This document shows, piece after piece, positions 1 to 57,464 of a DNA stretch of 64,000 bases. Source of the DNA: Botryllus schlosseri (taxonomy: Eukaryota). Every line of letters starts with the position of its first letter. Positions within the stretch are counted from its first letter, which is position 1. The stretch lies in assembly GCA_051294905.1 (NCBI GenBank), contig CM119371.1:15130001-15194000 (forward strand), written 5' to 3'. A model generated the notes under the pieces. The model searched no databases, had not been told where the DNA came from, and saw nothing but the letters and a program-made list of their open reading frames with translations. A program made the position numbers and the translations under genes.

Positions 1-15
1 TAGCATTCGCACCAT
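1..15 (-). CDS. 5' end (MVRML...) of another BTB-Kelch paralogue (A0) continuing off the left edge
   Basis: Same start context 'gcaccatgatcgct' as genes at 3136 and 33972. Upstream 16-1050 is homologous to the flank of the paralogue at 33972 (33973-34850, 37326-37400). Splice acceptor ttctcttttgtacAG at 43-60. Confidence 0.7.
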
Positions 16-1543
16 GATCGCTAATCTCTAATTAGGTATATGCTGTACAAAAGAGAATAGCAGATGTAATCTGTACTGACAGTAAACATGAAGGCATCAC
101 ATACCACTAGTCAGAACAGAGAAAATCAATATGAACTGAATATACTAGCATTCCGATGCACATAGCATATAACGAAGGTGTGAACAAGAAAATAGTCAAA
201 ATTGACATCAGGGTACTAATCAAAATATCCAGATTGGAAACAAACATCAACTTCAGGCCGCCTGGTGTAAGCAAATGGATACTCTTTCACCAGGTAGCCA
301 TATGGAAATCTAAAAGTCCTAGCCAATATCTTCGGCTAATTCCAGAGTTTTTACCTGACTCAACGTCAGATCAGCTAGTGTTACCAGATGGGCAATCCTC
401 TATCCTCTATGAAACAAAGACAAAGAAAGCCTATAGGATTTGAAAGTTGACTTATGGCAACTCCGTTTGCTCTTGTTACCGTGTTAAAGGGCAGGCATGT
501 TCTTGAGAATCTAAATCTGTCCGACACCTTAGTATCGCAACGATAATCCATTTCACTCATGAGGAACTTATCCAACAATCTGAAAATTCTGTTTCAGATA
601 ATACATTGGAGAATCGCAATCATACATCGGAACGAATACAAATGAAAAAATAATTTGGACTTGCAAGTCTAGAAAGAGCAACGCAGTGAGACAACACCAT
701 TAAATTAATGCAAGTCAACGAGTGTAAATGAACGTTCAACATTATCGCAACTCGGATCGGATGCAAAAAAAACAGCTGACAAAGATGAATGACAAATGAC
801 AGAGTTTATAAAAACAGTCAATCAATAAACTGTAACAAAAAATGAACATCAAAGAGTCATAAAATGTAAATTGCTTCAAGACTTCAGGAGCAAAAGAGAA
901 TCGGCAGTGGATGCAGACATCTCATCTGCTTTTTGCTCAGATTATTCCAGAAATATTTGAAAGAGCATACGAATTTAGGCTGACATGATTCTAAAAACGT
1001 TGGCTAATCGGCGCAAAGAACATCTAGCCAAAGGTGGTCAGTAATGAAGTACTGATAATTTTTTGGAGTACCCGAGTAGGTTTCGCCTATTTACACAACC
1101 TGCTCAGCTGGTTATAGACTTCGTCTACTTGAACAGTTTGCTGGGAAAACTTCTCACTTTTTAAATTTTGGCCACCTTTGGCTAGATGCAGCTACAGTTA
1201 TAGGTTGGATATGGGTTAGATTCGGTTGATTCAAATGGAATGCGGCAATATATCACAGGAAAAAATCATTTCCGTCATTCAAACAATTGAAACGATACTC
1301 TTAATGTATCACTACAACAATCTACAATTTTCTCACTAAAATGAGCTGTAATTTGATGGATCTGTCACATAGTCAATGTCGTTTCTGATATGAATACTAA
1401 CCACTTTGCAGTTACAGCATAACCAACTTATCCAAATTTCATGAATGCAGAATGTTCACACATTATTCTCAGAGGTTTTGAGCCCACATTAAAATATCTC
1501 ACGTCCTAAGATTCGAGAGGCCTTCAATTGAAGACACAGTTAT

Positions 1544-3136
1544 CTATATCTTCACCATTGCAGATCCGTGCCAGTACTTTACAACTGCTTCCTTTTTCAC
1601 GCTATGCCAATTTTTGTTCAATAAATCATACTTTTCAATGTTTTTATAGCCATCCACTACAAAAATACAGCTGCCAATGTGATACGCAGAATTGAATCCA
1701 TGACATATATTCATAGATGACACCGACGTCCATTGAGCTGATGATACATCGTAACATTCTACGTTCTTGTTGAGATCTTGTTCACTATAACCGCCGGTCA
1801 CGAAGATCTTTTGATTAACTGCAACAGCACCACATCCATACACAGGATATCTAAATGGTTCGAGGTCAACCCACTCTGAAGCGGACGGAGTGAATCTGCA
1901 GAATGAAGAAACTTGGGCAACATATTTCAATCCTCCAACACTGTAAATGGAATCATCCAGTGACACAAGTGTTGCTTTGCAAGTTGCTGTAGGCTTTTTT
2001 GGCAGTTGAATCCATTGAGTTAAATAGGTATCAAATCTTTCCACATCGTTTGATTCTTTGCCAAAACTTCCTCCGATGACAAATATGGATCCTGACGATG
2101 TCACTGAGCAAGGGAGCCGCCCGTGGTCAAAAATCATATCTTCCATTTTTTGCCAATTTGAATTTTTTCTCTTAAAATTGAGTCGGTGAACGGATTTATT
2201 CTGACATAAAACGTAAATATACTGGTGGAGAACAATCGTATCAAAAGAATCGAAATGCCGAAACTTTGGATCGTGAAACTTGGTTATTTTCTCCGAAATT
2301 GGATTGAAGGATCGAATACAATCGGTGTCCTCATCAAAAAAGATTCTCAATTCCTTTTTTCTTACCAGTTCAACTGATGCTTTTTGAATATGGCTCCTGA
2401 TCAAATTGTCCAACTCGGAGTCACGTTTGAAAATGGAGTGAGTTTCTAGAAGTTCTTGCAAAAACACAGGAGAGATTTCAACAAATTCGATCAATTCTAG
2501 ACATTCATACAAATTTTCCTTCTTCTCACATCTTTCAATCCACTTTAGCGTTAGAACTAATTTATCTTCTTCCCATAACTCCGATTTTGAAGACTTCAAG
2601 AGTTTAAAGATCTCACTTTTTTCAACGCTTCCAAATCCAGCCTGGTTTGCGATTTCCATGATATTGTCTTGTAAAAATATCCTGCATCTTGATGTGACTT
2701 CAACCAGTCCATAAATATCACCAACATTTCTTGTAGAGAAGTAGTTCTCAACAGTAATTGATTCCGCCAAAATATCGGCTATTGCCTCCTTTACATCTTC
2801 CAACTGCATCATAATTGCAATGTGAAGAAGTTCAATGGTTTTTCCATCTGGAATCTCAAATTTACTAGAATATACAAAATCGATGCAATTTTTCACACAT
2901 TCTGAATCGACATCTTTTAAAACGACTCTTCCTTCGCGACTCTCTTTTGTGTCATGTTTCAGCATGGCTCTAAAATATGCGGAGCCAGCCGACAATACAA
3001 TTTTGTGAGTACGATACACATCATCTCCGACTTGAATTATGAAATCACAATGTTCGTTATCTTGCTTCATTTGATGCAATTCCGCCATCATACACGCGCC
3101 ATGCTCTTCTGCATCCAAATATACCGTTTGCACCAT
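1544..3136 (-). CDS. BTB-BACK-Kelch (KLHL-like) protein, paralogue A1, 530 aa, intronless CDS
   Basis: BTB motif (HCDFIIQVG..Y.THKIVLSAGSAYFRAML), BACK region, Kelch repeats (IFVIGG, IYSVGG, IFVTGG, VECYD...W). Confidence 0.93.
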   Translation of the reverse strand: MVQTVYLDAEEHGACMMAELHQMKQDNEHCDFIIQVGDDVYRTHKIVLSAGSAYFRAMLKHDTKESREGRVVLKDVDSECVKNCIDFVYSSKFEIPDGKTIELLHIAIMMQLEDVKEAIADILAESITVENYFSTRNVGDIYGLVEVTSRCRIFLQDNIMEIANQAGFGSVEKSEIFKLLKSSKSELWEEDKLVLTLKWIERCEKKENLYECLELIEFVEISPVFLQELLETHSIFKRDSELDNLIRSHIQKASVELVRKKELRIFFDEDTDCIRSFNPISEKITKFHDPKFRHFDSFDTIVLHQYIYVLCQNKSVHRLNFKRKNSNWQKMEDMIFDHGRLPCSVTSSGSIFVIGGSFGKESNDVERFDTYLTQWIQLPKKPTATCKATLVSLDDSIYSVGGLKYVAQVSSFCRFTPSASEWVDLEPFRYPVYGCGAVAVNQKIFVTGGYSEQDLNKNVECYDVSSAQWTSVSSMNICHGFNSAYHIGSCIFVVDGYKNIEKYDLLNKNWHSVKKEAVVKYWHGSAMVKI

Positions 3137-14680: not shown

Positions 14681-16691
14681 ATATATCCATTTCTGTCGAC
14701 AAATGTATATATTTTGCACTTCATTGAAGGACATCTTTTGAACTCATGGAAGATGTTTAAAAAATATCTTTAATAAGTTTTGTGTTTGCTGGGCCTCCAC
14801 GAAAAAAACGCATGATTTATGAAAATATGTATTTAAGCGTCGGCCATTACCACGCCACAAAGACATATGAAGTTTGGGCCAACATGGTTATCCGAGAAGT
14901 GTGCCGAAAAGATCGTAAGCATGAAATCATTAGCCGAAAAGGGTCCCCTTATGTTGACCGTAAACTTCGATATAAATATATATCTAATTGTCCGGGTGCC
15001 TGGATAATTTCTGACCCCGAATCTTCCTGTCGAGGCAATCAGGACACCACATGACAAATGACATCCCGTAGAGAAAAATAATTATTTGGCAGTGAAGAAA
15101 TTCCAATTTTGAATCGTGTGCTTCTTTTAGGCGATTTCAATATCTTTTGACTCTATAGCGCACAGGTCAAGAAATAATAACATGTAACTATAAGTAATTG
15201 CACCAACGGTCACGACCGAACGTGTTTACAAAGATGAATTACGTGCACTAAATATGCCTAGGCAACATGCACTGAACTCCACCGGTAAATCTGATTACGT
15301 GGACTGAGAGGGTGCAAATTTTATAGCAAGATATATGCAATTACCAATATTATTGAACGAATCAATCATGAATTATAGAAATTTTTCGCTCATTGCACGA
15401 TCATACAACTGTAACAACTGTTACAAGTAGTGGTAATAACGTTCGTCGCGACGGGACATCTGTAAAAAGTGTCCTCCTTTTATGTTTTCCAAATATGGTA
15501 AGCCTAATATTGGCCGAAGTCGACGATATTAATAATATGTCCAAGTGCCCAGTTAGCCTACTTTTCGTGACATAAATATTAACGATTTTAATGCGTAGAA
15601 AGTGAAGTCTTGTTTTGACGGTTACCTAATTTTGGCTTGTCCTATTGGACGACTAATATACCGTATTGTCAATTGGTCATCAACCTGTAAGTGGCCCGCG
15701 TAAAGGTTCGTAAACGTCATGTGGTCCTTTGGACGAAAGGGTTGATAAACCTTAGCCTAATGCATTTGTTCTGCACCTTTTGTCTTTTATTTTTAGCCTT
15801 AACGCCAAGACAGTAAGGCTTCTTTCTCAAGTAATATAGAAGTTTTGAGATGCAGCACATTATTTGTAATCATTTTTATTGAAAAGATTGCTTGGACATG
15901 TAGGCTAACTATTTAGAATTTTTTTTTGCAACCTCAAGTTCACTTAGGGCGGCATTTTCAACGAAAGCCAGGGGCGGCAGCATATGCTGCCACGCCACTG
16001 TGTGTACATGTAACAAATTCATTGTAAAAGCCCTGTTCATGGACACATCGTCAGGAGTTCAACAGAAAACATGATCACAGAGTCCAAATTTATTGAGAAT
16101 TCATTAAAATTGCTGGAAGAAGGTGCTAGGTAAAGACTGTGCTAAGAAACGTCATAAAAAAATATTTCACACAGCAATGTTTCCATCACACTCTGAAAGC
16201 AATTTCTAGATCATTCTTAACAATCCACTACACCCCATACAAAAGTGATATGGTAGATGCTGGAAGTCGTCAAAACGAAGTACTTAATATTTTCGAAGTA
16301 CTCAAGTAGGTTCTCTCAAATTGCTCTACTCATTTAAGCAATAAGACTACTTCTACTTTACTATTTTTGGGGTAAAACTACTTCACTTGTACATCATGAA
16401 ATATTTCAGCTAGTTTTGTGGTGAGTTTGCAACGCTTCTGTGAGTGTAATTATCTTAGGCCTAGAAGTAGCCCGTGTTATCGTAGCTAAATCTTCATCAA
16501 TTTTTAGTGTCATCAGTCATTTTAAGCAGTCGAAGATACATTTAAAAATGACAACCCATCTCGACTTAATGTACCTTTTCAAGTTTATTTGAATAATCGT
16601 AGTGCTAATATGTCGAAAATGGACAGAGTGTAAATTTGTGGTGTGATCTCTAATGGACCAGTAACGCGGACAACTTTTACCAGCTCGGTGA

Positions 16692-18317
16692 CTACACCTT
16701 AACCATTACGGTTCCGCATACACAAAATGACGGACCTGCATTCAAACGAATGTCATACCATTCCTTCTTCGATAAATCATACTTCTCAATATTATCTGAA
16801 AGGCCACACTCATCTACTGCATAAATCCAGTTGGCGATTAGATATGTAGTAGTCCAACCACGACAAAGAATCATCGGTGGCAACGAAGTCCACTGTGCTG
16901 AAAGGACATCGTAACATTCAACAGAATAAATAGCGTCTCCTTCACCCCAACCACCGCTCACAAATATTCTTTGATCAACTGCAACAACACCACAGTCATC
17001 AAGCGGATATCTCATTGGCTCGAGGTCAACCCACACTGATGACGATGGACTGAATCTGCAGAATGAAGAAATAAAATTGCCATACTCCCCTTTACCTCCG
17101 ATACAGTAGATGTAATCGTTCAATGATACGAGACCTGCATCAGAAATCACTGTAGGTTTGTTCTCCAGTTGGAACCATTGATTTACAGATGCGTCGAATC
17201 TTTCCACGTCCCTGGTTGTCGTAAGATAACTGCCACCGATGACGAATAAGTATCCGGAAGAACAAACAGAGTGAGGAAAGATACCATGGTCACAAATCAT
17301 ACTGTCGGTCTTTTCCCATTTTGAATTTTTGCAATGAAAGTTGAGTCGAAAAACAGATTTAGTCTCGCATAGAACGTAAATATACGAGTCGAAGGTAATT
17401 GCAGCGAAATTCAACGAGGACTGAAACTTCGCTTCATGGAACATTTCTATTTGCTCGGTTACTGGATTGAAGGATCGGAGGCATTCTCCTTCCCGATCAA
17501 AAAGAATAATCAATTCACCAGCAGCATTTTCTTCTTTTGCCTTGTTAGAAGTATTCAAAATATATCCAGCAATTAACTTGTACAATTCATAATCTTTGCT
17601 TATAAGGGGTTGAGTTTGTAAAACATGCTGCAAATACGCCGGAGAGATTTTATCAAAGTGGATCACTTTGAGACCTTCGTGCAAATATTCCTCTTTACTG
17701 TGGCATTTGTCGATCCACTTGAGTAATAACATAAGTTTTTCTTCTTCCCATAATTTGGATTTTCCAGACTTCAAAATACAGAGAAGTTCATCTTTTTCCA
17801 CGCTCCCGAATCCAGCTTGGTTTGCGATTTCCATGATATTTTCTTGTAAAAATTCTCTGCAATTAGAAGACACACCTACCAGTCCATAAATATCACCAAC
17901 ATTTCTTGTAGAGAAGTAATTCTCAGTGGTAATTGATTCAATCAAAATACCGCATATCGCATCCTTTACATCTTCTAACTGCATCATGATTGCGACGTGA
18001 AGAAGTTCGAGCATTTTGCCATCAGGAATCTCAAATTTCCTTGAGTATATGAAATTGATGCAACTTTTCACACACTCGGAATCTACATCTTCTAATACAG
18101 CTCTTCCTTTGCGACTCTCTTTTGTATCATGCTTCAGCATCGCTCTGAAATAATCCGAACCTGCTGACAATATATTTCTGTGAGCGCGATAGACATCATT
18201 CCCGACTTGAACTATGAAATCACAATGATCTTGATCTTGCTTCATTCGATATAATTCCTCCATCATCTTCAATGCACGTTGCTCTGCACGTTTAATAGCA
18301 ACCTGCACCATGATCAT
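16692..18317 (-). CDS. BTB-BACK-Kelch protein, paralogue B
   Basis: Uninterrupted ORF with BTB, BACK and Kelch motifs. First in-frame ATG at 18317; the track start at 18323 is TTG. Confidence 0.93.
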   Translation of the reverse strand: MIMVQVAIKRAEQRALKMMEELYRMKQDQDHCDFIVQVGNDVYRAHRNILSAGSDYFRAMLKHDTKESRKGRAVLEDVDSECVKSCINFIYSRKFEIPDGKMLELLHVAIMMQLEDVKDAICGILIESITTENYFSTRNVGDIYGLVGVSSNCREFLQENIMEIANQAGFGSVEKDELLCILKSGKSKLWEEEKLMLLLKWIDKCHSKEEYLHEGLKVIHFDKISPAYLQHVLQTQPLISKDYELYKLIAGYILNTSNKAKEENAAGELIILFDREGECLRSFNPVTEQIEMFHEAKFQSSLNFAAITFDSYIYVLCETKSVFRLNFHCKNSKWEKTDSMICDHGIFPHSVCSSGYLFVIGGSYLTTTRDVERFDASVNQWFQLENKPTVISDAGLVSLNDYIYCIGGKGEYGNFISSFCRFSPSSSVWVDLEPMRYPLDDCGVVAVDQRIFVSGGWGEGDAIYSVECYDVLSAQWTSLPPMILCRGWTTTYLIANWIYAVDECGLSDNIEKYDLSKKEWYDIRLNAGPSFCVCGTVMVKV

Positions 18318-19295
18318 CACCAACCAGTCTTCAAGGATGAATAAGAGTACTGTCTAGGCTACATTAGATATACCATACTGCAAAAGTAAAGATAGCCGAT
18401 ATTGAATCACCAGGAGTCAAAATACAAACATAATTTCATCACTAGAATACCAGCATTGACAAAATGTATATAACCAATTGCATTAACATTGATTGATAAT
18501 TTTACGAACATGGCAGGTTGGTTAGAACTGCTACACATCTTACCCCAGTGTACTGACATATAAGAGCTGTTAGTGATAAATTATCAGGGTAAATAAAATA
18601 TCAACTTACATGAATTCAACACAATTTATTATTAACAATCTCAACATGTCAATACACCAGAAGACTGTGATACAAGTAGATAGAAAGGTGTCGAAACGAC
18701 ATTGATAATTCTTTGAAATCAGACACCCACCTATCCTAGGCGAAGCAAAATAATAAATGGTTGACGTGCTAATAAAAGCAAAATGCATGTGTTAGGAAGT
18801 GGTAAGTAAAATCAATGATGAAAGAAAACACTGGCTAGGCAGGTTAGCATATCGAATCACAAAATTCATATCTACCTTGCCTTTCATTTGTCAATTTCTT
18901 ACTTACAAAAATATCAGCTAGTACTTTGATTGAAACCGAATGTGTGTTGAATGACAATAATATTCCAATTCAATTTATTAAAAACAATTTGATCATTTAA
19001 TACACCACGATACTGCGATACAACGAAAAAATAGGATTTTGTCGAAACGACTTGGAGTAATCTTTCAGACACCCACCTGTACTAGGCGATGTGTAGGAGG
19101 TGTGTACACTGAATGAAAAGTAGATGCAGGTAATAAAAAAGGAAAGGTAATGACTGTCACAATGTATAACTCGAAACAAGTTTACTTCAGACCCACACGC
19201 GATTAAAACATTACTTTCAAATTAGCCATTACAAATTCATTATTGTATCACTCAACTGAGCCCCGGCACACAGTCATCTGTCTTTTACTCGCTAC

Positions 19296-19478
19296 CAATG
19301 CTCCCTCTAAGCTGCGCACATGCGCAGTGCTTTCACGGTATCTGCGCACAGAAAATCCAAGTTGTGCACAAAAAATCCAAAGTGATGAACTTTTTTGTCG
19401 TTACGCACTGTTTTCAAAGGGTCTGCGCAGTGAGTTGGTGAGTGTGGGCAGACCCGTCAAAAATTAGAGGGAACATTG
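19296..19478. mobile_element. hAT-type MITE
   Basis: TIR caatgctccctctaa / ttagagggaacattg; TSD ctcgctac / cttgctac; also present in the duplicated block (about 49657-49837). Confidence 0.8.
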
Positions 19479-19656
19479 CTTGCTACCCAACTATCATTTA
19501 ACAACAAATATATATGTAAGATCACTTTGATGTTGCAGCACAGCAGAGACTTACGCGAATCTCGAGAATGCATGCTTAAACATTATTCAGAGAGGTTTTC
19601 AGTCAACGCTAGAATATCACATATTCTCAAGAGCCCTCAGTTCAAGTACCACTGAT

Positions 19657-21276
19657 CTATACTCTCACCATTGCAGATCCTCGGGGTCCGAAAATAAAAG
19701 TCCAATAACCATAATCTTTTTTCAAGCTATACCATTTCTTGTTCAATATATCGTACTTCTCAATGTCATCGGAATCGTGATTACAATTCACCGCATAAAT
19801 CCAATTGCCGATGTGATAAACAGCATGGCCCTCATCACAAACATTCATAGATGGTAATGAAGACCACTGAGCTGATGTGACATCGTAACATTCTACATTG
19901 TTGATGAGCTCATTTCCACTCAAACCGCCGGTCACAAATATCTTTCGATCAACTGCAACAACACCACTATCACACACAGGATATCTCATCGGTTCAAGGT
20001 CAACCCACTCTGATGAGGATGGAGTGAATCTGCAGACTGCAGAAACCTGGAAATCCTCATCACCCCCTCCAATACAATACACAGAATCATCCAATGCCAC
20101 GTGACTTGCACCATAATCTGCTGCATGGTTGTTTTCCATTAGAAACCATCGATTTAAAGAAGGATCAAACCGTTCCACAGAATTTAGTTCCGGGTCGTAA
20201 CTTCCTCCGAGGACAAATATTGATCCACACAACGACACCGAGGAAGGATATGTACCATGGCGACATAACATATCTTCCATCCTTTGCCATTTTGAATTTT
20301 TTCTTCGAAAATTGAGTCGATGAACGGATCTATTCCCGCATAAAATGTAAACATATGACTCGAGAACGATGGTTGTAAAAGAATTAAAATGCTTAAACTT
20401 CGCATCGTGGAACCTCGTTATTTTCTCGGAAACCGGATTAAAAGATCGCATACAATCTGCTTCCAAATCTAAAAGAATTATCATTTCTTTTTTGTTGACC
20501 CGTTCAACTGATACTTCCAGGTAATGTCTGTGGATCAACGCATGTGACTTGGCATCATTCCTGATAATGGGATGAGTTTCTAGAAGATGCTGCAAAAATG
20601 TTGGTGAGATTCCGTCAAACTCTATCAATTCGAGACACTCATGCAAATATTCCTTCTTTTTTTGACATGTCTCAATCCACTTGAGCAATACCTTCAGTTT
20701 TTCTTCCTCCCACAAAATCGATTTCTCCGATTCCAAAACACTGATAATATCATTTTTGTCAACGTTACCGAATCCAGCTTGGTTTTCGATCTCTCTGATA
20801 TTTTCTTGTAGAAATTTTCTACACTCTGAAGAAATGTCATCGAGTCCATAAACATCAGCAACGTTTCTTGTAGAGAAATAATTCTCAACAGATATTGAAT
20901 CTACCAAGATTTCGCATATTGCATGCGTCAGATCTTCCAACTGCATAATGATTGCGACGTGAAGAAGTTCTATGATTTTTTCATCAGGAATCTCCAATTT
21001 ACTGAAATATATAAAATCGATGCAGTTTTTGACACATTCGGAGTCTACATCTTGAAGTACAACTCTATTTTCTTGACTTTCTTTCGTGTCATGCTTTAAC
21101 ATGGCTTTGAAGTAATCTGAACCAGCCGACATTATATTTTTGTGGGTGTGATAGGCATCATTTCCGACTTGAACTATGAAATCACAATGATCTTGATCTT
21201 GCTTCATTCGATATAATTCTTCCATCATCTTCACTGCACGTTTCTCTGTATCTTTAATAGCAATCGGCACCATCAT
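19657..21276 (-). CDS. BTB-BACK-Kelch protein, paralogue C
   Basis: Uninterrupted ORF with BTB, BACK and Kelch motifs; first ATG at 21276. Confidence 0.93.
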   Translation of the reverse strand: MMVPIAIKDTEKRAVKMMEELYRMKQDQDHCDFIVQVGNDAYHTHKNIMSAGSDYFKAMLKHDTKESQENRVVLQDVDSECVKNCIDFIYFSKLEIPDEKIIELLHVAIIMQLEDLTHAICEILVDSISVENYFSTRNVADVYGLDDISSECRKFLQENIREIENQAGFGNVDKNDIISVLESEKSILWEEEKLKVLLKWIETCQKKKEYLHECLELIEFDGISPTFLQHLLETHPIIRNDAKSHALIHRHYLEVSVERVNKKEMIILLDLEADCMRSFNPVSEKITRFHDAKFKHFNSFTTIVLESYVYILCGNRSVHRLNFRRKNSKWQRMEDMLCRHGTYPSSVSLCGSIFVLGGSYDPELNSVERFDPSLNRWFLMENNHAADYGASHVALDDSVYCIGGGDEDFQVSAVCRFTPSSSEWVDLEPMRYPVCDSGVVAVDRKIFVTGGLSGNELINNVECYDVTSAQWSSLPSMNVCDEGHAVYHIGNWIYAVNCNHDSDDIEKYDILNKKWYSLKKDYGYWTFIFGPRGSAMVRV

Positions 21277-21406
21277 CACCACCAACCAGTCTTCAAGGAT
21301 AAATAATAGTACAATCTAGGCTAAAATAGATATGCTGCAAAAGTAAAGATAGCAGATATTGAATCAATAGGAGTCAAAATACACACATAATTAATATCAC
21401 ATCCTT

Positions 21407-21517
21407 TCAGACTGGAACTATGAAATCGCAATGATCTTGATCTTGCTTCATCTGCTGTAACTCCTTCATCATACTAACTGCACGTTCCTTCACATGTTGC
21501 AAAACAATCTGCACCAT
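21407..21517 (-). pseudogene. 36-codon 5' fragment of a BTB-Kelch paralogue
   Basis: Translates MVQIVLQHVKERAVSMMKELQQMKQDQDHCDFIVPV*, homologous to the paralogue N-termini. Confidence 0.85.
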
Positions 21518-21619
21518 GATCAACAATGACGTGGAAACTATACAATATAGATAAGTACTGCTTCAAAATTAAATATACTTATGATGTTGACAGATGCTGA
21601 GTAATATTTATGACTAGAG

Positions 21620-23750: not shown

Positions 23751-24867
23751 CTGTAACCTGGTACATAACAAATAACTGAACAGAAACTTGACAGTAACAT
23801 GCTCGGATGTTGGCTAGCACCTCCAGCATCCTCTGCAGACGGATGCTGTGCTAATCTGACGTTGAAGCAAGAAAGAAGCTCGATCGGTTAGGGGAACTCC
23901 CGAGTTTGTCTGTGGCTTAATCCCGCCAACTGATGGCGTTAATTTATCGTACCAGCGTCTTGCTTCAGAAAATTTACTTATTTCCCAGATACAATAGTTA
24001 CGACCGTTTTACTGGGTCGTATTGACTGCGATACAACGCGCGATATGGCTGAAAGAACGGTACCGTATGAAAGGAACCACGTAACCTGCTGCCAAAATTA
24101 TATAGACAGACACTTTCGTGAAAACGTATTTGTCATTCCATAATCCATATCTATTTCACGCGGAACACGACGAAATTTTGGGAATTTACTTAACTTTTGG
24201 GAGAAGTAAATAAGTGTTGGTATCCCACAATATCAGTCTCTAAATTCCATTACCTCGCTGTCTCCCTGACTCCCTCCCTCTCCCAAGCCTTGGTCATTAT
24301 TGATGGACCAAGGTTACATCGCTGTCGATGTGTCTGGCAGCACACTTCGTTTGTGCTACCGTGCATTACTCATCCTTGGTACTCAAGTAGAAGGGACGTC
24401 AAGAGTTTTCCCGTATAGTAAAAATAGAAGTAACGACGTTTAATTCAAATGTTGTCAAACAGGTGCAAGTGGAAGTAAAAAAATGATTATTAGAAAAATA
24501 ACCAATCAGGGCCTTGAGTACTGAAAAAAAATATTTGATTGAGTGCTCTATCTTAGCGAGGAGGAGGGTTCTTTCAAAATTACAGGGAATATCTTCACGA
24601 TTACCGGAAAATATCTACAAATCGCTGCAATTTTTAAAAATCACTATATTCCGTGATGCAGTCGCCATAGCCCAGTTGGTATTTTACTCATGGGAACATA
24701 CCGCAAAATTACAATCCACGTCACAAAATCTAAAATTCATACAATAGGTTTGTCTAGAAATTTAGTCGGCGAGGAGTCTAACATCACACGAACTTGAGTA
24801 CGGTAAGTGGTGCAATTGTGCAGATCCTAATTGAGTTCTCCCAAAAATTAGAAATAATGTGTTAGAC

Positions 24868-26138: not shown

Positions 26139-26402
26139 TGTGTTACTGACAATCTCTGCTTTAGAAGCTCCAATGCGTTGCAAGTGCAACTCCACGAAAT
26201 ATCTCGTACATCAAATTCCACACTTATAGACCGCCGTGAAAACGGAGTGATTTCTAAACTTCGCCACATTCGACTGAACAGCATGGCTGCAATATAGCCA
26301 TTTCAAATATAATTCATACCTAGCTTTTGTTAAACTCTGTTGAACCATAGACTTGGACGGACAACTAGAACATTTTTAGCTTTTCCAAATTAGTATACTG
26401 GC

Positions 26403-44900: not shown

Positions 44901-47034
44901 CAAACTGTGCGGCACCGAAAAAGACACCCTATATCATATGTACGTCGAATGCAATATGTACAAAACTATATTTTTTGTCATCAGGGAAATCATCGAAAAC
45001 ACCGTTCGAAGCGACATAGACGCCACGGAGAAAGAAATCTACGACAACAGTTACGACGGACCAAACAAGATTGTGGTACTGAAGGCCTACACCATCGCCA
45101 AACTCGAGATATGGAAATCAAAACGTCAACTTGATATTGCGAATGAATATGCCACGAAAGACCGAATACGGGCCATAACCAACAGCATATCGAAGAAATT
45201 GGGCGAGGAATTACGCAAACTATTGAACAACACGCGATAAGCCTGAAGGCGACGCAAATAACCGCTTTACACGCGATCGCAAAATCTAGTTAATATCCTG
45301 AAATATGACTATGCATATCTCCAATTTCCCGCGTATATATGAAATGCATATTGTATAGTCATTCCATATACATGTACCAATATGAATATTTATTTTTACG
45401 CCTTTTTTTTTCCTTTTCCATATGTAAATAAAACTGCCATTTCGTGTGTTTTACTACCCCCCCCCCATACCCCTCCCCGGAAATATCATATCCCATATAC
45501 CCCAACAGCGGCTCCACCAACACCACACCCTACCAAAACCACCCAATAGGAGATATCGTCATCCTAGAAATGAGAAAATTACCAGGGTCACCATAAACTA
45601 AAATGTACGGTAGGTAATTGGGAACATAAATATTGAAAATATCATAATTACGATGATTGGTAAATTTCTAAAAATGGACAAACCCAGAACATGGAAAATT
45701 ATTGAGAAATAAATATGACTGAAAATATGAGTTCAATTTCGTCACGCTCCAATAACACCCTAAAGACTATAAACCCAAAGACCATTTAAATATAAAAAGA
45801 ATGGTGCAGGCGTATAAGACTTGAGATCTTAAGTTCAGCCATCCAGGATTCAAATAGGCACGCACTATATTTCTTCTTTATTTACTTTTGGTTATTATGC
45901 TTTATCATGCACTTTGAAATAAAATCACTAAAGAGAAAAATTTTGGATGAAGGGTTTTTAGAGTCCAAAAAAGGCCGTCTGACATCATACTAATTTCTCA
46001 TACTTCAGTGGAAAATCCTGCTAATCTTCTACTTTCAATGCGAAATCACAATCCGGATCTACACTCCTGCGTACAGACTTATGGACAACTAGAAAATTTT
46101 CAGCTTTTCCAAATTGGATCAGAATTAGATTACTGGCACTTCGCTCTAATTTAGTGCAATTAGACTACAATTATCCAGTTACCCAAGTCTGCCTGCGTGC
46201 TTTTGTCTTTCTGATTCGATTTTGATTGTTTGAAGTTCTTTTGTAATTTTACCATTCCACAAGCTAAAATGTTGAGCACCACTATCATCACCAAGGCAAA
46301 CTCTTCAGTCAGCTTTAAGCCTTGCCAACTCTAACCTGGCATGTGTACATGTATATGTAAATATTTCATTGTGAAAGCCCTGTTCACGGACACATCGACA
46401 GGAGTTCAACAGAAACCGTGATCGCAGAGTTGCAATTTATTATGAAACATTGAAATTGCTTGGAAGACTGGTGTTAGGAAAAGATTAGGCAAAGAAACGT
46501 TATATACAAATCTTTCAAACACTCTGAAAGTGATTTCTATATCATTAATAACAATCTACTACGGCCCATACAAAGTGATATATGATATAAGTCGGAAGTC
46601 ATCAAAACGAAGTACTTAATATTTTTGAAGAACTCATGTAGGTTCTCTCAATGTGCACTACTCATCCAAACGGTGATGTTTTCAAGACCAATCTTACTTT
46701 ACAAGTATTGGGGTAAAACTATACTTCGCTGGTACGTTATGAAATATTTCAGCTAGTTTTGTGATGAGTTTGCAAAGCTTCTGTGGGTGTGATTATCTTA
46801 GGCCTAGAAGTAGCCCGTGTAATCGTAGGTAAATCTTCATCAATTTCAAGTGTCATCAGTCATTTTAAGCATTCGAAGATACATTTAAAAATTACAACCC
46901 ATCTCGACTTAATGAACCTTTTCAAGTTAATTTGAATAATCGTAGTGCTGATATGTCGAAAATGGGCAGAGTGTAAATTTGTGGTGTGATCTCTGATGGA
47001 CCAGTAACGCGGACAACTTTTACCAGCTCGATGA

Positions 47035-48681
47035 CTATACCTTAACCATTACAGTTCCGCATACACAAAATGACGGACCTGCATTCAAACGAATGTCATA
47101 ACATTCCTTCTTCGATAAATCGTACTTCTCAATATTATCTGAAAGGCCACACTCATCTACTGCATAAATCCAGTTGCCAATTAGATATGTAGTAGTCCAA
47201 CCACGACAACGAATCATTGGTGGCAACGAAGTCCACTGTGCTGAAAGAACATCATAACATTCAACAGTATTAATAGCGTCTCCTTCACTCCAACCACCGC
47301 TCACAAATATTCTTTGATCAACTGCAACAACACCACAGTCATCAAGCGGATATCTCATTGGCTCGAGGTCAACCCACACTGATGACGATGGACTGAATCT
47401 GCAGAATGAAGTAACAAAATTGCCATCCTCCCCTTTACCTCCGATACAGTAGATGTAATCGTTCAATGATACGAGACCTGCATCAGAAATCACTGTAGGT
47501 TTGTTCTCCAGTTGGAACCATTGATTTACAGATGCGTCGAATCTTTCCACGTCCCTGGTTGTTGTAAGATAACTGCCACCGATAACGAATATGCATCCGG
47601 ATGAACAAACAGAGTGAGGAAAGACACCATGGTCACAAATCATACTGTCTGTGTTTTCCCATTTTGAATTTTTGCAATGAAAGTGGAGTCGAAAAACAGA
47701 TTTAGTCTCGCATAGAACGTAAATATACGAGTCGCATGAAATTGCAGTGAAATTCAACGAGGACTGAAACTTCGCTTCGTGGAACATTTCTATTTGCTCG
47801 GTTACTGGATTGAAGGATCGGAGGCATTCTCCTTCCCGATCAAAAAGAATAATCAATTCAGAAGCAGCATTTTCTTCTTGTGCCTTGTTAGAAGCATTCA
47901 AAATATATCCAGCAATTATCTTGTACAATTCATAATCTTTGCTTATAAGGGGTTGAGTTTGTAAAACATGTTGCAAATACGCTGGAGATATTTTATCAAA
48001 GTGGATCACTTTGAGACCTTCGTGCAAATATTCCCCTTTACTGTGGCATTTGTCGATCCACTTGAGTAATAACATAAGTTTTTCTTCTTCCCATAATTTG
48101 GATTTTCCCGACTTCAAAAGACCGAGAAGTTCATCTTTTTCCACGCTCCCGAATCCAGCTCGGTTTGCGATTTCCATGATATTTTCTTGTAGAAATTCTC
48201 TGCAATCTGAAGACACACCTACCAGTCCATAAATATCACCAACATTTCTTGTAGAGAAGTAATTTTCAGTGGTAATTGATTCAATCAAAATATCGGATAT
48301 CGCATCCTTTACATCTTCTAACTGCATCATGATTGCGACGTGAAGAAGTTCGAGCATTTTGCCATCAGGAATCTCAAATTTGCTTGAATATATGAAATTG
48401 ATGCAACTTTTCACACACTCGGAATCTACATCTTCTAATACAGTTCTTCCTTTGCGACTCTCTTTTGTATCATGCTTCAGCATAGCTTTGAAATAATCCG
48501 AACCTGCTGACAATATATTTCTGTGGGTGTGATAGACATCATTCCCGACTTGAACTATGAAATCACAATGATCTTGATCTTGCTTCATTCGATATAATTC
48601 CTCCATCATCTTCACTGCACGTTTCTCTACACGTTTAATAGCAACCTGCACCATGATCATCACCAACCAGTCTTCAAGCAT
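47035..48681 (-). CDS. BTB-BACK-Kelch protein, paralogue B' (recent duplicate of B)
   Basis: Uninterrupted ORF, highly similar to 16692-18317. Homologous ATGs at 48660 and 48654, plus an extra in-frame ATG at 48681. Confidence 0.93.
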   Translation of the reverse strand: MLEDWLVMIMVQVAIKRVEKRAVKMMEELYRMKQDQDHCDFIVQVGNDVYHTHRNILSAGSDYFKAMLKHDTKESRKGRTVLEDVDSECVKSCINFIYSSKFEIPDGKMLELLHVAIMMQLEDVKDAISDILIESITTENYFSTRNVGDIYGLVGVSSDCREFLQENIMEIANRAGFGSVEKDELLGLLKSGKSKLWEEEKLMLLLKWIDKCHSKGEYLHEGLKVIHFDKISPAYLQHVLQTQPLISKDYELYKIIAGYILNASNKAQEENAASELIILFDREGECLRSFNPVTEQIEMFHEAKFQSSLNFTAISCDSYIYVLCETKSVFRLHFHCKNSKWENTDSMICDHGVFPHSVCSSGCIFVIGGSYLTTTRDVERFDASVNQWFQLENKPTVISDAGLVSLNDYIYCIGGKGEDGNFVTSFCRFSPSSSVWVDLEPMRYPLDDCGVVAVDQRIFVSGGWSEGDAINTVECYDVLSAQWTSLPPMIRCRGWTTTYLIGNWIYAVDECGLSDNIEKYDLSKKECYDIRLNAGPSFCVCGTVMVKV

Positions 48682-50015
48682 AAATAATAGCACTATCTAG
48701 GCTACATTAGATGTACCATACTGCAAAAGTAGAGATAGCCGATATTGAATCACTAGGAGTCAAAATACAGACATAATTGTTATCACACAAATACCAGCAT
48801 TGACAAAATGCAGATAACCAATTGCATTAACATTGATTGATAATGTCACGAACAGGGCAGGTTGGTTAGAACTGCTACACATCTTACCCCAGTGTACCGA
48901 CAATGTGTCTAAACTTCAAATAAGACCTGTTAGTGATAAATTATCAGGGCAAAAAAAATTATCAACTTACATGAATTCAACACAATTTATTATCAACAAT
49001 CTCAACATGTCAATACACCAGAAGACTGCGATACAAGTAGATAGTAAGGTGTCGAAACGACATTGAGAATTCTTTGAAATCAGACACCCACCAATCCTAG
49101 GCGATGCAAAATACTAAATGGTTGACGTGCTAATAAAAGCAAAATGCATGTGTTAGGAAGTGGTAAGTAAAATCAATGATGAAAGAAAAGACTGGCTAGG
49201 CAGGTTAGCATATCAAATCACAAAATTCATATCCAACTTGCCTTTTATTTGTCAATTTCTTACTTACAAAAATATCAGCTAGTAGTTTGAATGAAACCGA
49301 ATGTGTGTTGAATGACAATAATATTCCAATTCAATTTATTAAAAACAATTTCATCATTTAATACACCACGATACTGCGATACAATGCAAAAATAGGATTT
49401 TGTCGAAACGACTTGGAGTAATCTTTCAGACACTAACCTGTACTAGGCGATGTGTAGGAGGTGTGTATACTGAATAAAAAGTAGATGCAGGTAATAAAAA
49501 AGGAAAGGTAATGACAATCACAATGTATAACTCAAAACAAGTTTACTTCAGACCCACACGCGATTGAAACATTTTTTTCAAATTTGCCATTACAAATTCA
49601 TAATTTTATCACTCAACTGAGCCCCGGCACACAGTCATCTGTCTTTTACTCGCTACCAATGTTCCCTCGAAGCTGCGCATTGCGCAGTGCTTTCACGGTC
49701 TTGGCGCACAGGAAATCCAAGTTGCGCACAAAAAATCCAAAGTGATGAACTTTTTTGTCGTTACGCACTGTTTTCCAAGAGTCTGCGCAGTGAGTTGGTG
49801 AGTGTGCGCAGACTCGTCAAAAATTAGATGGAACATTGCTTGCTACCCAACCATTATTTAACAACAAATATATATGTAAGATCACTTTGATGTCGCAGCA
49901 CAGCAGAAACTTACTCGAATCTCGAGAATGCATGCTTAAACATTATTCAAAGAGGTTTTCAGTCAACGCTAGAATATCACATATTCTCAAGAGCCCTCAG
50001 TTAAGTACCACTGAT

Positions 50016-51647
50016 CTATACTCTCACCATTGCAGATCCTCGGAGTACGAAAGTCAAAGTCCCATAACCATAATCATTTTCTTCTTTTTTCAAGCTATAC
50101 CATTTCTTGTTCAATATATCGTACTTCTCAATGTCATCAGAATCGTGATACCAATTCACCGCATAAATCCAATTGCTGATGTGATAAACAGCATGGCCCT
50201 CATCACAAACATTCATAGATGGTAATGAAGACCACTGAGCTGATGTGACATCGTAACATTCTACATTGTTGATGAGCTCCTTTCCACTCAAACCGCCGGT
50301 CACAAAAATCTTTCGATCAACTGCAACGACACCACTATCACACACAGGATATCTCATCGGTTCAAGGTCAACCCACTCTGATGAGGATGGAGTGAATCTG
50401 CAGAATGCGGAAACCTGGAAATTCTCATCACCACCTCCAATACAATACACGGAATCGTCCAATGACACGTGACTTGCACCATAATCTGCTGCATGGTTGT
50501 TTTCCATTAGAAACCATCGATTTAAAGAAGGATCAAACCGTTCCACAAAATTTAGTTCAGGGTCGTAACTTCCTCCGAGGACAAATATTGATCCACACAA
50601 CGACACCGAGGAAGGATATGTACCATGGCGACATAACATATCTTCCATCCTTTGCCATTTTGAATTTTTTCTTCGAAAATTGAGTCGATGAACGGATCTA
50701 TTCTCGCATAAAATGTAAACATATGACTCGAGAACGATGGTTGTAAAAGATTTAAAATGCGCAAACTTCGCATCGTGGAACCTCGCTATTTTCTCGGAAA
50801 CCGGATTAAAAGATCGCATACAATCTGCGTGCAAATCAAAAAGAATTATCATTTCTTTTTTGTTGACCGGTTCAACTGATACGTCCAGGTAATGTCTGTG
50901 GATCAACTCAAGTGACTTGGCATCATTCCTGATAATGGGATGAGTTTCTAGAAGATGCTGCAAAAATGTTGGTGAGATTCCGTCAAACTCTATCAATTCG
51001 AGACACTCATGCAAATATTCCTTCTTTTTTTGACATGTCTCAATCCACTTGAGCAATACCTTCAGTTTTTCTTCCTCCCACAAAATCGATTTCTCCGATT
51101 CCAAAACACTGATAATATCATTTTTGTCAACGCTACCGAATCCAGCTTGGTTTTCGATCTCTCTGATATTTTCTTGTAGAAATTCTCTACACACTGAAGA
51201 AATGTCATCGATTCCATAAACATCAGCAACGTTTCTTGTAGAGAAATAATTCTCAACAGATATTGAATCTACCAAGATTTCACATATTGCATGCGTCAGA
51301 TCTTCTAACTGCATAATGATTGCAACGTGAAGAAGTTCAATGATTTTTTCATCAGGAATCTCAAATTTACTGAAATATATAAAATCGATGCAGTTTTTGA
51401 CACATTCGGAGTCTACATCTTGAAGTACAACTCTATTTTCTTGACTTTCTTTCGTATCATGTTTTAACATGGCTTCGAAATAATCTGAACCAGCCGATAT
51501 TATATTTTTGTGGGTGTGATAGACATCATTTCCGACTTGAACTATGAAATCACAATGATCTTGATCTTGCTTCATTCGATATAATTCCTCCATCATCTTC
51601 ACTGCACGCTTCTCTGTATCTTTAATAGCAACCGGCACCATCATCAT
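50016..51647 (-). CDS. BTB-BACK-Kelch protein, paralogue C' (recent duplicate of C)
   Basis: Uninterrupted ORF, highly similar to 19657-21276; first ATG at 51647. Confidence 0.93.
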   Translation of the reverse strand: MMMVPVAIKDTEKRAVKMMEELYRMKQDQDHCDFIVQVGNDVYHTHKNIISAGSDYFEAMLKHDTKESQENRVVLQDVDSECVKNCIDFIYFSKFEIPDEKIIELLHVAIIMQLEDLTHAICEILVDSISVENYFSTRNVADVYGIDDISSVCREFLQENIREIENQAGFGSVDKNDIISVLESEKSILWEEEKLKVLLKWIETCQKKKEYLHECLELIEFDGISPTFLQHLLETHPIIRNDAKSLELIHRHYLDVSVEPVNKKEMIILFDLHADCMRSFNPVSEKIARFHDAKFAHFKSFTTIVLESYVYILCENRSVHRLNFRRKNSKWQRMEDMLCRHGTYPSSVSLCGSIFVLGGSYDPELNFVERFDPSLNRWFLMENNHAADYGASHVSLDDSVYCIGGGDENFQVSAFCRFTPSSSEWVDLEPMRYPVCDSGVVAVDRKIFVTGGLSGKELINNVECYDVTSAQWSSLPSMNVCDEGHAVYHISNWIYAVNWYHDSDDIEKYDILNKKWYSLKKEENDYGYGTLTFVLRGSAMVRV

Positions 51648-52856
51648 CACCAACCAGTCTTCAAGGATAAATAATAGTACAATCTAGGCTACAATAGATA
51701 TGCTGCAAAAGTAAAGATAGCAGTTATTGAATCAATAGGAGTCAAAATACACACATAATTAATATCACATCCTTTCAGACTGGAACTATCAAATCGCAAG
51801 GATCTTGATCTTGCTTCATCTAATGTAACTGATCAACAATGACATGCAAACTATACAATAGAGATAAGTACTGCTTCGAAATTAAATATACTTATGATGT
51901 TGTATCAGTCAGTGCTGTAAGCCAGGGTTGTAATGACTCGAGTCATGACGAGTCACGATTTTCTGATGGTTTAACTTGACTCTAGTCAGTTTCACAAAAT
52001 ACGCAATACGTATTGACTTGACTTGGACTCAAGTCATTGCGCATGACTCGAACCAAGTCATATGACTCGAGAATCAGACGGCTAAGACCGACATTTCATT
52101 ATAATGTCTGAGAATAGTATAAAGTAACTGCACTATTGATATTCCGTCTATTGGTTTGATAGTGTACTTCAAAATTCGACCAAAACTGCTAAAAGTGAGC
52201 AAAATTAGTATAAATGGGAACCCTTCGATATCGCTAAACAGAATTATAAAAAGTGGGTGTAACAAGACGTTAACTGGGAGCTGAGCAGTCAACACAAGGA
52301 CTTGACTCGGTGGTGAATTGAAAATGACTCGACTTGACTCGATACAAAACTATAAAAGTGAGATTGACTTGTGACTCGGAGTCTTCTGACTTGGTTACAA
52401 CCCGGCTGTAAGCTGGTACATAACAAATAACTCAACAGAAAATTGACAATAATACGCTCGGATGTTGAATAGCACCTCCAGCATCCTCTGCAGATGGATG
52501 CTAACGCTAATCTGACATTGAAGCAAGAAAGACGGTCGACCGGGTAGGGGAACTCCCGTGTTTGTCTGTGGCTTACTCCCGCCAACTGATGGCGTGAATT
52601 TATCGTACCAGCGTCTTGCTGCAGAAAATTTACTTATTTCCTAGATACAATAGTTACGAACTTACGACCTCTTTACTGGGTCGTATTGACTGCGATACAA
52701 CGCGCGATAAGGTTGAAAGAACGGTACAGTATGAAAAGAACCACGTAACAGTGAAAACGTATTTGTCATTCCATAATCCATATCTATTTCACGCGGAACA
52801 CGACGAAATTTTGGGACTTTACTTAACTTTTGGGAGAAGTAAATAAGTGTTGGTAC

Positions 52857-54881
52857 CAGGGCTGTGGAGTCGGTAAATTTTACCACCAACTCCGGCTCCG
52901 ACTCCGACTCCACACATTTTCAATATACCGACTCCGACTCCGACTCCGACTCCTGAGTCTTTAAATGTACCGACTCCGACTCCGACTCCTGGGTCTTTAA
53001 ACGTACCGACTCCGACTCCCGACTCCGACTCCAGCATTATTACCAATTTACTTCGAAAATTATATGCCACATTGTCGGTTGAAAGACTATCATACAACCA
53101 TTAAACATATGCAAACATATGATTAACTGTGGCGTGCTAAATTGTTTCATTGTGGCACAGCTCGAATTATCCACTATGCAATTAACATGAAATAAAGATT
53201 TGCTAAATATCCTTCCTTATTCAAGTTTTTATAACATGGACTCTCCAATATCCTGAAATGTATGAATCATTCAAATATGGCAGATATCCAATCCTGTATA
53301 ATAAAAATGTAGACAAAAAATCCAAGTGTAGCTCTTGTGTATGACTCGGCAACTAATAAAGAAATTGAACTTACTCATTGCACACTATCCTGATTACAAG
53401 CACAAACACTCTTACTGCTAATAATAGACATTGGTCATAAATGGAATTTAGTTAAGTAGTCAAAGACCATAGCCTATGTCTAGTCTACATGTACTTAATC
53501 AAGTATTCAAGGATTGGGACTAGCAGTCTTTCTTAATCATTTGTTCGACCCAAACAGCTAAGCTACAGTACAAATATTTTTAATTTTGTCAAGTGGGAAG
53601 CATCGTTTGGTCATATTTACACCATTTTCACAATTTTACAAAACCAGCCGATGCATTTTCTCTGTCACAGTATCATGATATAATTCCAAAAATTGCATCA
53701 ATTTTGAATGCATCGCGAAAAAGCATCTTGCGATTTTCTTCCCCACTGCAACTGAGTTGTAATTTGCAAGTAATGTCTAATTTTATCTATATCAGGGGTG
53801 GGCAACTTTTTCGGCGAAAGGGACACCTGAGATTTACGAACCATTGCGCGGGCAACTGGAATGTTGATTACCTTTTTTTAGTCGTCGATAGGAGCGAACT
53901 GAATTAGGTAACATTGCAAACAAGACTTATATTAATACGCTCTAAAATTGATAACAATATGTCATGCAACCGTGCAGTGCGCAATCAGGCCCTGGTTGCG
54001 CGAAGCGCGAATTTTTTTTGCAAGATAACGACTAAATTAGGCTATAGCTATATCAATAAATATGTCGGTAACATACATTGGGGGTCGCATCTGTACTGTA
54101 TACCACTTGGGCTTATTTGGCTAGGACAGGATTATTCGACGTTTAGACATAGCAAAATCGACGGTATCAGTGAACATGCCTCTATCATTTTGTGCAAATG
54201 TTTTGTCGACGATCTCGCTGCGAGTGCACAAGCGAAGCCGTATCTCCTAATTGCGAATATAGTTAGACTCAATTCTGTGAATAATATGTATTTATAATTT
54301 TCAGAAGGGGGCTCAAATACTGAATGCAAGAAATCTAATGACAATGAATCATGCGAAGTACCGAGAAAAATTTCAAGTCAAATAAATCTGCTATGAAATA
54401 TTCTACTTTATGGGCATATAGAAAGATCTGGGATAAATGTGGCTGACCCCTGGATACGTCAACGCGTCAGAACTGTTGTTTTAGTCATCATCAAATTTCG
54501 CGGTCATGCTAATCAAATTTTGGTTGGCCTTGCAATTGTACCTGATGTCATAAATAATTTCGAGAAATACGTCGCAGGCCACACCTAACCTTCTCGTGTG
54601 CCAAATTTGACGTGCGTACCACGGGCTGGCCGCACCTGATCTGTATGGTTAATAATGATAGTGATTGGTGGTACATAAAAATTCTATTGAAAATTCTTTG
54701 AAAGCAAATGTTGGAGTCGGAGTCGGAGTCGAAGTCATAGTCATTCTCACAAACTCCGACTCCGACTCCAGTCAGTATTTTCCCACCGACTCCGACTCCA
54801 GCTATTATAGTTTTCACGACTCCGACTCCGACTCCATCAAGCGAAAATTACCCCGACTCCGACTCCGACTCCACAGCCCTG
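52857..54881. mobile_element. (GACTCC)n-bearing hAT-type MITE with nested MITE at 53793-54638
   Basis: TIR cagggctgtggagtcgg / ccgactccacagccctg, perfect TSD gttggtac, empty site at about 24216. Inner element TSD atctatat / atctgtat. Confidence 0.88.
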
Positions 54882-56659
54882 GTTGGTACCCCACAATATC
54901 AGTCTCTAAATTCCATTGTCTCGCTGTCTCCCTGCCTCTCTCTCTCTAACTTTGCATTCGCAATGGAAGAATATAATACTTCTACTTTACAAACTTTAAA
55001 TAGCGAAAAGAGTGTAAGTCACAACACATTAGAACCAGTAGATGTATCGAAAAAATTGATTTACTCGGTAGTGCAAGAAGTAGAGAAGAACTAGTTGAGG
55101 ACTGCCATGCCCAAAAATAAAGTAGTTAGGTGACCGTCAACGAAGTGGTAGTTTGTACAAGTCTGCTGGGGGCGTTATTCCTGCACCTGCTCATATCAAC
55201 AGTGCAGGTTGTCAACAAGCCTTGGTCATTACTCATTATGGACCAAGGTTACATCGCTGTCGATGTATCTGGCAGCACACTTCGTTTATGCTGCCGTGCA
55301 TTACTCATCCCTGGTACTCAAGTAGAAGGGACGTCTGGAGTTTTCCCGCATAATAAAAATAGAAGTAACGACGTTTAATTCAAAGGTTGTCAAACAGCTG
55401 CAAGTGGAAGTAAAAAATGGTTGTTAGAGAAATAACCAATTAGGGCCTTGAGTACTGAATAAAATATATTTGATTGAGTGCTGGAATTATCTCAACGAGG
55501 AGGAGGGTTCTTTCAAAATTACAGGGAATATCTTCACGATTACTGCAAAATAACTACAAATCGCTGCAATTTTCAAAAATCACTATATTCCGTGATGCAG
55601 TCGCCATAGCCCAGTTGGTATTTTACTCATACAGGCGATGGGAACATACTGCAAATTTACAATCTACATCACAAAATCTAAAATTCATACAATAGTTTTG
55701 TCTAGAAATTTAGTCGGCGAGGAGTCTAACATCACACGAACTTGAGTACGGTAAGTGGTGCAATTGTGCAGAACCTAATTGAGTTCTCCCAAAAATTAGA
55801 AATAAGGTGTTACTGAAAATCTCTGCTTTAGCGGCTCCAATCCGACGCAAGTGCACGAAATATCTCGTACATCAAATTCCACACTAATAGACCGCCGTGA
55901 AAACGGAGTGATCTCTGAACTTCGCCACATTCGACTGAACAGCATCGCAACAGTTTAGCCATTTCAAATATAATTCATACCTAACTTTGTTAAACTCTGT
56001 TGAACCCTAGACTTGGACAACTAGAAAATTTTCAGCTTTTCCAAATTAGACTACTGACATTAGACAACTAGAATTATCTATTTGTTGAAGTCTGTGTCTA
56101 ACAAATAGGTAATCTGTTGGATAGACATACATGCAGAACGCTGAGTTTGCTTCAGAATTTTTTATTGTGGCTCCAAGCTCTGAAGTTGGTCAAAACGGAA
56201 CGTGGGTATACAACACATGGAATAAACGGTAAACACTTGAAACGATTAAGAGTCAATGACGAATATGGTCAGGATTGTCAATTCGGATTCGCCGTTTTGA
56301 TGAGGTTACGTTTATAGAGGTTGGATAAGGGTTAGGTGTAGGACTCGATTTATTAGGCCAACAATATAACATAGCCAAGTGTTACTCGAAACTGCTTCAT
56401 TTCTGTTATTCTAACGATTTAAACTGTACTTTTACATGTATGACCTGAAAAACACCAATTTTGTCATACAAATGAGATGCAATCAGATTGAACGAAACAC
56501 AATGTGATTTCAAATCCACAGAGAAATCAGTTTGAAGTTTTAGCACAACTAAAGTTATACCATGCTCAATGAATATTATTTACACAAAGCATTCAGTTAT
56601 GTTCGAATATGCAACGTCCTCCTTGGAGAGGCACGGCATTCAGTTGAAGAATCAGTGAT

Positions 56660-57464
56660 CTATACTTTCACCATCGCAGATCCGTGAAGTCGGAAAGTTG
56701 GGTCTGTACCGTCATCCACTGTATACCATTTCCAATTTATCAAATCGTACTTCCCAATGTAATAAGATTTGATGTACCCATCAATTATATAAATCCAGTT
56801 GCCGATGTGATAAGCTGCGCTGCAAATTCCACAATGCAAAGATGGCAATGAAGTCCATTGAGCCGAGGTGACATCGTAGCATTGTACAATATCAACCATA
56901 GAAAAGTACCTCATCCCACCTATCACAAATATCTTTTGATCAATTGCAACAGCACCAGAGTTAGACACAGTATATCCCAATGGTTCAAGGTCAACTCATT
57001 GTGACGAAGATGGAGTGAATCTGCAGAATGAAGAAAGTTCGACACGATCTCGCCAGCCTCCTATACAATAAATGGAATCATCCAGTGATACAAGGCTTGC
57101 ATCACAAATTGCTGTAGGCCTTTTTTGAAGTTGAATCCATTGATTTGAAGATGTGTCAAATCTTTCCACATCGTTTGATGCTTTGTCAAAACTTCCACTG
57201 CCGATGACAAATATGGATCCTGACAATGACACTGAGCAAGGGAGTGACCCATGGTCAAAAATCATGTCTTTCATCTTTTGCCAATTTGATTTTTTTCTCT
57301 TAAAATTGAGTCGGTGAACGGATCTATCCTGACATAAAATGTAAATGTAGAGGTCGAGAACAATTATTGCAAATTGACTGAAATGCCGAAACTTTGCATC
57401 GTGAAACTTGGTTATTTTCTCAGAAATTGGATTAAAGGATCGAATACAATCGGTGTCCCTATCA
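56660..57464 (-). pseudogene. Kelch-only remnant A'' (duplicate of A') with nonsense codon; BTB/BACK half lost
   Basis: Aligns to 32369-33174. TGG>TGA at 56996-56998. Homology ends abruptly at Gypsy pol. Confidence 0.9.

Follow-up and report, generated by a model that had tools for sequence, protein, structure and literature searches.

The 64,000-nucleotide stretch of Botryllus schlosseri DNA analyzed here (the window) carries an array of BTB-BACK-Kelch genes between positions 1 and 57464. Using six-frame ORFs, tblastn, self-blastn, Pfam and direct reading, we recovered the nine co-oriented members that a sequence-only reading had counted in 57 kb, all of them on the minus strand. Five are intact and four are broken or cut, that is, one is frameshifted, one is reduced to its Kelch half, one is a 5' relic and one is cut by the edge of the window. 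The intact members A (1544..3136; 530 aa), B (16692..18317), C (19657..21276), E (47035..48660) and F (50016..51647) are open frames of 530-541 aa, each matching BTB (E values of 1e-20 to 2e-21), BACK and Kelch_1 in Pfam; blast additionally identified E and F. Our analyses of B start from its second in-frame ATG, at 18311, and those of C from the ATG at 21273.

The remaining members were delimited by blast and inspection of the sequence, together with the open frame in the case of G. Member D (32369..33972) lacks one base near 33872, a frameshift that may be real or a sequencing error. Member G (56660..57464) retains the Kelch half alone, has an in-frame TGA at 56996-56998 and, at 57464, abuts the middle of the pol region of an LTR retrotransposon. 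The 5' relic (21407..21517) comprises 36 codons of the start of the BTB followed by a stop, and a further decayed copy of it, a tenth remnant of 14 codons read directly from the sequence, lies upstream of F (51775..51819). The edge member (1..487) consists of a 5' flank and the first five codons (ATG at 15), with an A/D-type leader; in blastn, its flank is 71% alike to the region upstream of A over 6-378 and 70% alike to that upstream of D over 6-487.

The three divergent subtypes that had been recognized also hold, namely A/D/G, B/E and C/F, with identities of 57-60% between and 72-94% within subtypes (93% at the amino acid level for B and E, 94% for C and F). The description of the genes as intronless stands for the coding regions, none of which contains an intron, but not for the whole transcription unit, as an acceptor-like site 25-60 bases 5' of the ATG makes a 5' UTR intron likely in seven members. 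No spliced RNA read crosses this site among the reads listed. In relation to a possible retrogene origin, no spliced parent of these single-coding-exon members was found.

The transposon nest described around the genes was confirmed by Pfam matches to reverse transcriptase (6856-7401, 43405-45240 and 58014-58883) and endonuclease (41965-42552) and by inverted-repeat elements, LINE and LTR elements being found in the gaps of the array. A plus-strand LINE (41965-45240) with endonuclease, RT and zf-RVT is split by two in-frame stops and sits inside a repeat also present upstream of A (3511-3788). On the minus strand, a degenerate Ty3/Gypsy-type gag-pro-pol (57412-60853) shows no visible LTR where G meets mid-pol, what suggests a deletion after insertion. 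The element at 26403-31721 has inverted ends of about 900 bp that are 90% alike and a nested perfect inverted 32-bp pair (27728/30739), and is restricted to the first copy of the duplicated block discussed below; a 2.4-kb insertion with CCGACT-rich subterminal repeats (52856-55215) is restricted to the second. A small foldback element (39143-40079) carries CTAACC and GTTAGG telomere-like runs within its inverted arms. Between A and B, a spliced plus-strand transcript with seven introns (8082-14120) was seen in all four RNA runs. Six of its junctions read directly as GT-AG and one did so after shifting the cut. In the window copy, its frame is reduced to 222 codons by stops at 10521 and 10730. 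Its exon pieces had no match in Pfam and one exon gave weak Atlas leads to DUF4806 (0.88) and BEN (0.85); it is possibly a transposon-borne gene.

Self-blastn revealed that much of the array is present as two copies of a block, at 16003..33173 and 46350..57464, whose collinear pieces are 88-95% alike and in which B, C, the relic and D correspond to E, F, the remnant and G. Because the E-F-G block is one recent copy of the B-C-D block, E, F and G are not independent births. The birth-and-death array proposed from the sequence is thus borne out in its block duplication, decay and pseudogenes, but not in separate births of these three members.

We consider the E-F-G block to be probably a young polymorphic duplication. 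A rather doubtful alternative is that the assembly joined B-C-D and its second haplotype one after the other, what would leave six loci and is compatible with any of the other explanations weighed below. In the B-C part, the two copies differ at 111 of 3237 coding sites (3.4%) and at 193 of 2369 non-coding sites (8.1%). The coding difference is near the heterozygosity of 3.63% given for B. schlosseri (PMC12448946), as expected for a joined haplotype, but the non-coding difference, the several transposon-sized indels that separate the copies and the lack of any N gap within the window argue otherwise. DNA reads point both ways. For runs X5 and X2 on B, the differences listed (40 of 348, favoring well-supported ones) include 25 of the 87 B/E-diagnostic sites, with the other 62 lying outside them. 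Run X5 has the E letter alone at all 25 listed sites, and its contigs have a depth near 90 where they are long and single and near 45 where they are split, in line with a joined haplotype, contig depth not being equivalent to copy number. At the same 25 sites, run X2 has E alone at 13, B alone at three and both letters at nine, and its contig depths (again not copy numbers) step through about 8-10, 18, 26 and 37, as four copies would give. X5 resembles a single diploid locus, and X2 resembles about four copies or a pooled or chimeric sample. In the DNA runs, 31-41 distinct contigs stack on conserved motifs, what points to a large family with many more relatives in the genome.

Transcription was surveyed in four RNA runs, three single-cell and one bulk, of each of which 3-6% was read at 90% likeness; the plus-strand transcript with GT-AG splicing, mapped alongside, gave the orientation of the reads. 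Sense depth was 3-10 over A (2002-3335) against an antisense depth of at most 0.13, and 0.3-5 over B against at most 0.45. Reads at least 95% alike to B numbered 38 of 675 in run X22 and five of 118 in run X23; where these reads cover the subtype-specific 3' end of B, their letters are those of E. The array is therefore not silent, as A-like and B/E-like genes are weakly transcribed in sense, and other family members are transcribed more. At 17810-18081, X22 displays a peak of partly matching sense reads, with depth up to 116 and one consistent flank; the single flank indicates a higher-expressed family relative elsewhere in the genome.

A search with C alone returned 24 matches, the nearest being three unnamed Logan proteins (50, 42 and 38%), followed by 11 Styela clava models (27-30%). 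More full-length relatives came from a profile search, in which the 11 Styela rows of the profile favored Styela sequences, and the 22 looked up comprised 10 named ones, all from Styela clava, and 12 unnamed. No additional family member came from an alignment-based protein search, and none of 45 candidates was a shorter Kelch-only relative. Within Styela clava, P0004-P0013 make up a young BTB-Kelch subfamily of their own, with a scaffold about 90% conserved and hypervariable BC and DA loops. Poxvirus BTB-Kelch clusters appeared among the Atlas look-alikes of the array; we rejected a viral origin, since every KLHL-type cluster shares such scores and the sequences nearest to the array come from ascidians.

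A quick tree was built from 66 rows, excluding G, P0008, P0010, P0011, P0014, multi-repeat giants and fragments. It unites the six window rows in one clade (SH-aLRT 99) nested in a 44-row clade (SH-aLRT 100), and the window rows cluster with four unnamed Logan proteins as a clade of their own. The 17 named rows of the 44-row clade are all from Styela, and this divergent clade lies apart from 22 canonical-type rows (six named), what supports the earlier claim of a lineage-specific family. There is no one-to-one conserved orthologue among the relatives compared and, with the incomplete vertebrate set of this tree, the window genes group with none of the canonical KLHLs tested (KLHL3, 8, 10, 18 and diablo). 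Judged by their sequences, the window genes are members of the BTB-BACK-Kelch family and orthologues of no canonical KLHL tested, and the family is likely ascidian-specific.

These data bear on the possibility that the genes are a KLHL10-like expansion of adaptors for the germline or sperm, with host substrates and a role in spermatogenesis or gamete competition. There is a precedent in termites, where 37 BTB-BACK-Kelch (KLHL10) genes are tied to spermatogenesis (PMC4348803), and fertile Botryllus colonies are reported to have 224-fold more of a kelch-like 10 transcript (PMC4523013) that may or may not belong to this family. The low bulk read depth would also fit a restricted cell type. Nevertheless, the sole named KLHL10 in the tree (oyster P0015) groups with the canonical rows, outside the window clade, and we regard a germline role as improbable.

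Pfam detected BTB (PF00651) and BACK (PF07707) in all six members retaining the respective regions, and picked up two or three Kelch repeats individually, the first two repeats being degenerate. The AlphaFold model of C (mean pLDDT 83, pTM 0.54) presents a BTB, a BACK and a six-bladed propeller with 24 strands in residues 263-537, and 3-box helices at 132-141 and 145-157 that align to KLHL3. Its best structural matches were KBTBD2 and KLHL22 in Cul3 complexes, and its propeller superposes on the Kelch domain of KLHL12 with a TM of 0.82-0.83 (0.83 by target).

In KLHL3, A77, M78 and E85 are each required for Cul3 binding (PMC3616122). They align with A57, M58 and E65. These residues do not vary in any of the 20 aligned rows, and neither do the positions from alpha5 to the 3-box (A107, Q111, L112 and Y142). 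Cul3 binding by the window proteins is likely on these grounds. One position departs from the known pattern. The phi of the phi-x-E motif is described as a large hydrophobic residue with the most buried surface in Cul3 complexes, being Met in KLHL3 (PMC3616122), but it is Thr in all six window members having that region, in which the Glu and the upstream A-M are invariant, and a small residue, Ala or Asn-type, in the Styela rows. Such replacements would suit proteins that bind Cul3 weakly or not at all and that sequester their targets or dimerize with other BTB proteins, with no ubiquitination involved. The alpha3-beta4 loop has low confidence in the model, though this loop is also disordered without Cul3 in solved structures. 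Set against the invariance of the other contact positions in all 20 rows, we find such an action without ubiquitination very improbable.

Selection was analyzed on few sequences (seven, representing three lineages), with purpose-written code for the codon models. Between subtypes, pairwise dN/dS is 0.11-0.24 in the BTB, 0.20-0.30 in the BACK and 0.34-0.55 in the Kelch domain, values that place the BTB and BACK (0.11-0.30) under purifying selection; in the N-terminal half, no class above 1 was found (LRT 0). The young pairs B-E (0.40) and C-F (0.50) are likewise under net purifying selection, and the value of 1.9 for D-G is nonsignificant and involves broken copies. When the Kelch domain was partitioned according to the secondary structure of the C model, dN/dS was 0.25-0.26 in strands, 0.34-0.39 in bottom loops, 0.54-0.64 in DA loops and 0.80-1.05 in BC loops.

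Support for a positively selected class of sites in the Kelch domain is modest. Comparison of M8 with M8a gave p values of 0.0014 (seven sequences), 0.0056 (indels masked), 0.014 (five intact genes) and 0.089 (five intact, masked), significant in three of the four, and that of M2a with M1a on the same data sets gave 0.011, 0.062, 0.069 and 0.33, significant in one of the four. None of 64 null simulations reached the observed LRT of 10.3. Ten of the 12 sites with a posterior above 0.5 fall in BC or DA (top) loops, and no Kelch site reaches 0.95. In the last blades of A and D (1544-1950 versus 32369-32780), third-position identity drops from 80-93% to 45%, likely by exchange with an unseen paralogue, and recombination of this kind can inflate tests for positive selection.

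Top loops evolve faster than bottom loops in the window genes (p 0.0007), and in 10 Styela rows, some of which may be alleles or re-annotations and from which P0014 was left out, 21 of the 25 most variable columns belong to top loops (BC/DA; top minus bottom, p 0.0004). Six of the 12 window sites recur as variable in the Styela rows. As the pocket for the substrate owes its shape to the BC and DA loops of the Kelch propeller (PMC3597819), the fastest change lies on the predicted substrate face, with the BTB and BACK constrained, rather than purifying selection being uniform along the genes.

It could be argued that such loops are merely relaxed, duplications in a repeat-rich region having produced redundant adaptors by genomic drift with no arms race. 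In agreement with this, BC loops as a class lie at about 1 and not above it, the signal of positive selection fades (p 0.09 and 0.33) when neither pseudogenes nor columns next to indels are kept, leaving the test on five intact genes nonsignificant, four of the nine members are broken or cut, and transposons are many. Drift alone would hardly lead the top loops to outpace the bottom loops both here and in Styela, bring two separate expansions to vary at the same columns, or keep dN/dS near 0.3 between subtypes with dS near 1. We therefore judge drift as unlikely, about as much so as a germline role.

We favor a repertoire of adaptors instead. A family of single-coding-exon BTB-BACK-Kelch genes would grow by block duplication and lose copies by decay. 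By comparison with solved KLHL structures, the BTB would dimerize and dock Cul3 together with the 3-box, the BC/DA face of the propeller would bind a substrate, and the bound substrate would be ubiquitinated. Taken without any defense role, the adaptor repertoire is in our view quite probable. The predicted target-binding loops may have diversified because the targets are fast-changing foreign or selfish proteins, such as those of viruses, intracellular parasites or transposons, a defense role suggested solely by analogy with nematode F-box proteins. The complete proposal, of Cul3 adaptors whose pocket diversifies against such targets, is one we advance tentatively, giving it slightly less than an even chance.

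A wider hypothesis, which seems to us rather unlikely as a whole, is that stolidobranch ascidians repeatedly built inherited intracellular recognition repertoires on the Kelch propeller. There would be several independent subfamilies, variable in copy number between colonies, presenting different pockets on a fixed Cul3-docking scaffold and directing to degradation the proteins of allogeneic cells that invade, or those of viruses, parasites or transposons. A recurring pressure is suggested by the fact that two ascidian expansions, separate from each other, vary at the same loop positions. If several such repertoires exist, the present cluster would be a small and tractable set for finding first targets; if the role is in the germline, or if drift prevailed, it would be an ordinary lineage-specific expansion.

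In the open literature we found no description of an ascidian Kelch expansion, most subscription papers lying outside the search. The word "kelch" is absent from the main text of the ascidian genome papers examined, whose supplements may list the family.

The window genes share with vertebrate KLHL/KBTBD adaptors (KLHL3, KEAP1, KLHL12, KBTBD2 and KLHL22) the BTB-BACK-six-blade Kelch architecture, the 3-box and the conserved A-M and Glu of the Cul3 loop. Structural alignments put them at 13-24% identity to these adaptors, and they further differ in forming a separate clade, in the Thr at the phi position, in the degeneracy of the first two Kelch repeats, in having one coding exon and in their tandem turnover. 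The nearest named sequences are Styela clava "kelch-like protein" models (such as XP_039264566.1 and XP_077975302.1; automatic names), which have 27-30% identity, belong to the same clade and include a young multicopy subfamily hypervariable in the same loops, but stem from an independent expansion, the window genes having their own clade with the four unnamed Logan proteins. The expansion in the termite Zootermopsis is also lineage-specific and has the same architecture in its 37 genes, but was assigned to KLHL10 and spermatogenesis, and the relevant section of that paper contains no analysis of the substrate face (PMC4348803).

Nematode F-box genes underwent tandem species-specific expansion, with a constrained ligase-binding N-terminus and a fast substrate domain for which foreign targets were proposed (PMC8665587). 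The window genes likewise combine tandem duplication and pseudogenes with a constrained half predicted to bind the ligase and a faster putative substrate domain, but those families use another cullin or substrate domain, whereas here a Kelch propeller is employed in a chordate. Nematode MATH-BTB genes are a further birth-and-death family of adaptors. Recognition of foreign proteins has been proposed for the fast-turnover cullin adaptors of nematodes, whose known targets are few. The question becomes testable with a version built on Kelch in the vertebrates' sister group, as this one has a defined pocket and only three subtypes in the cluster.
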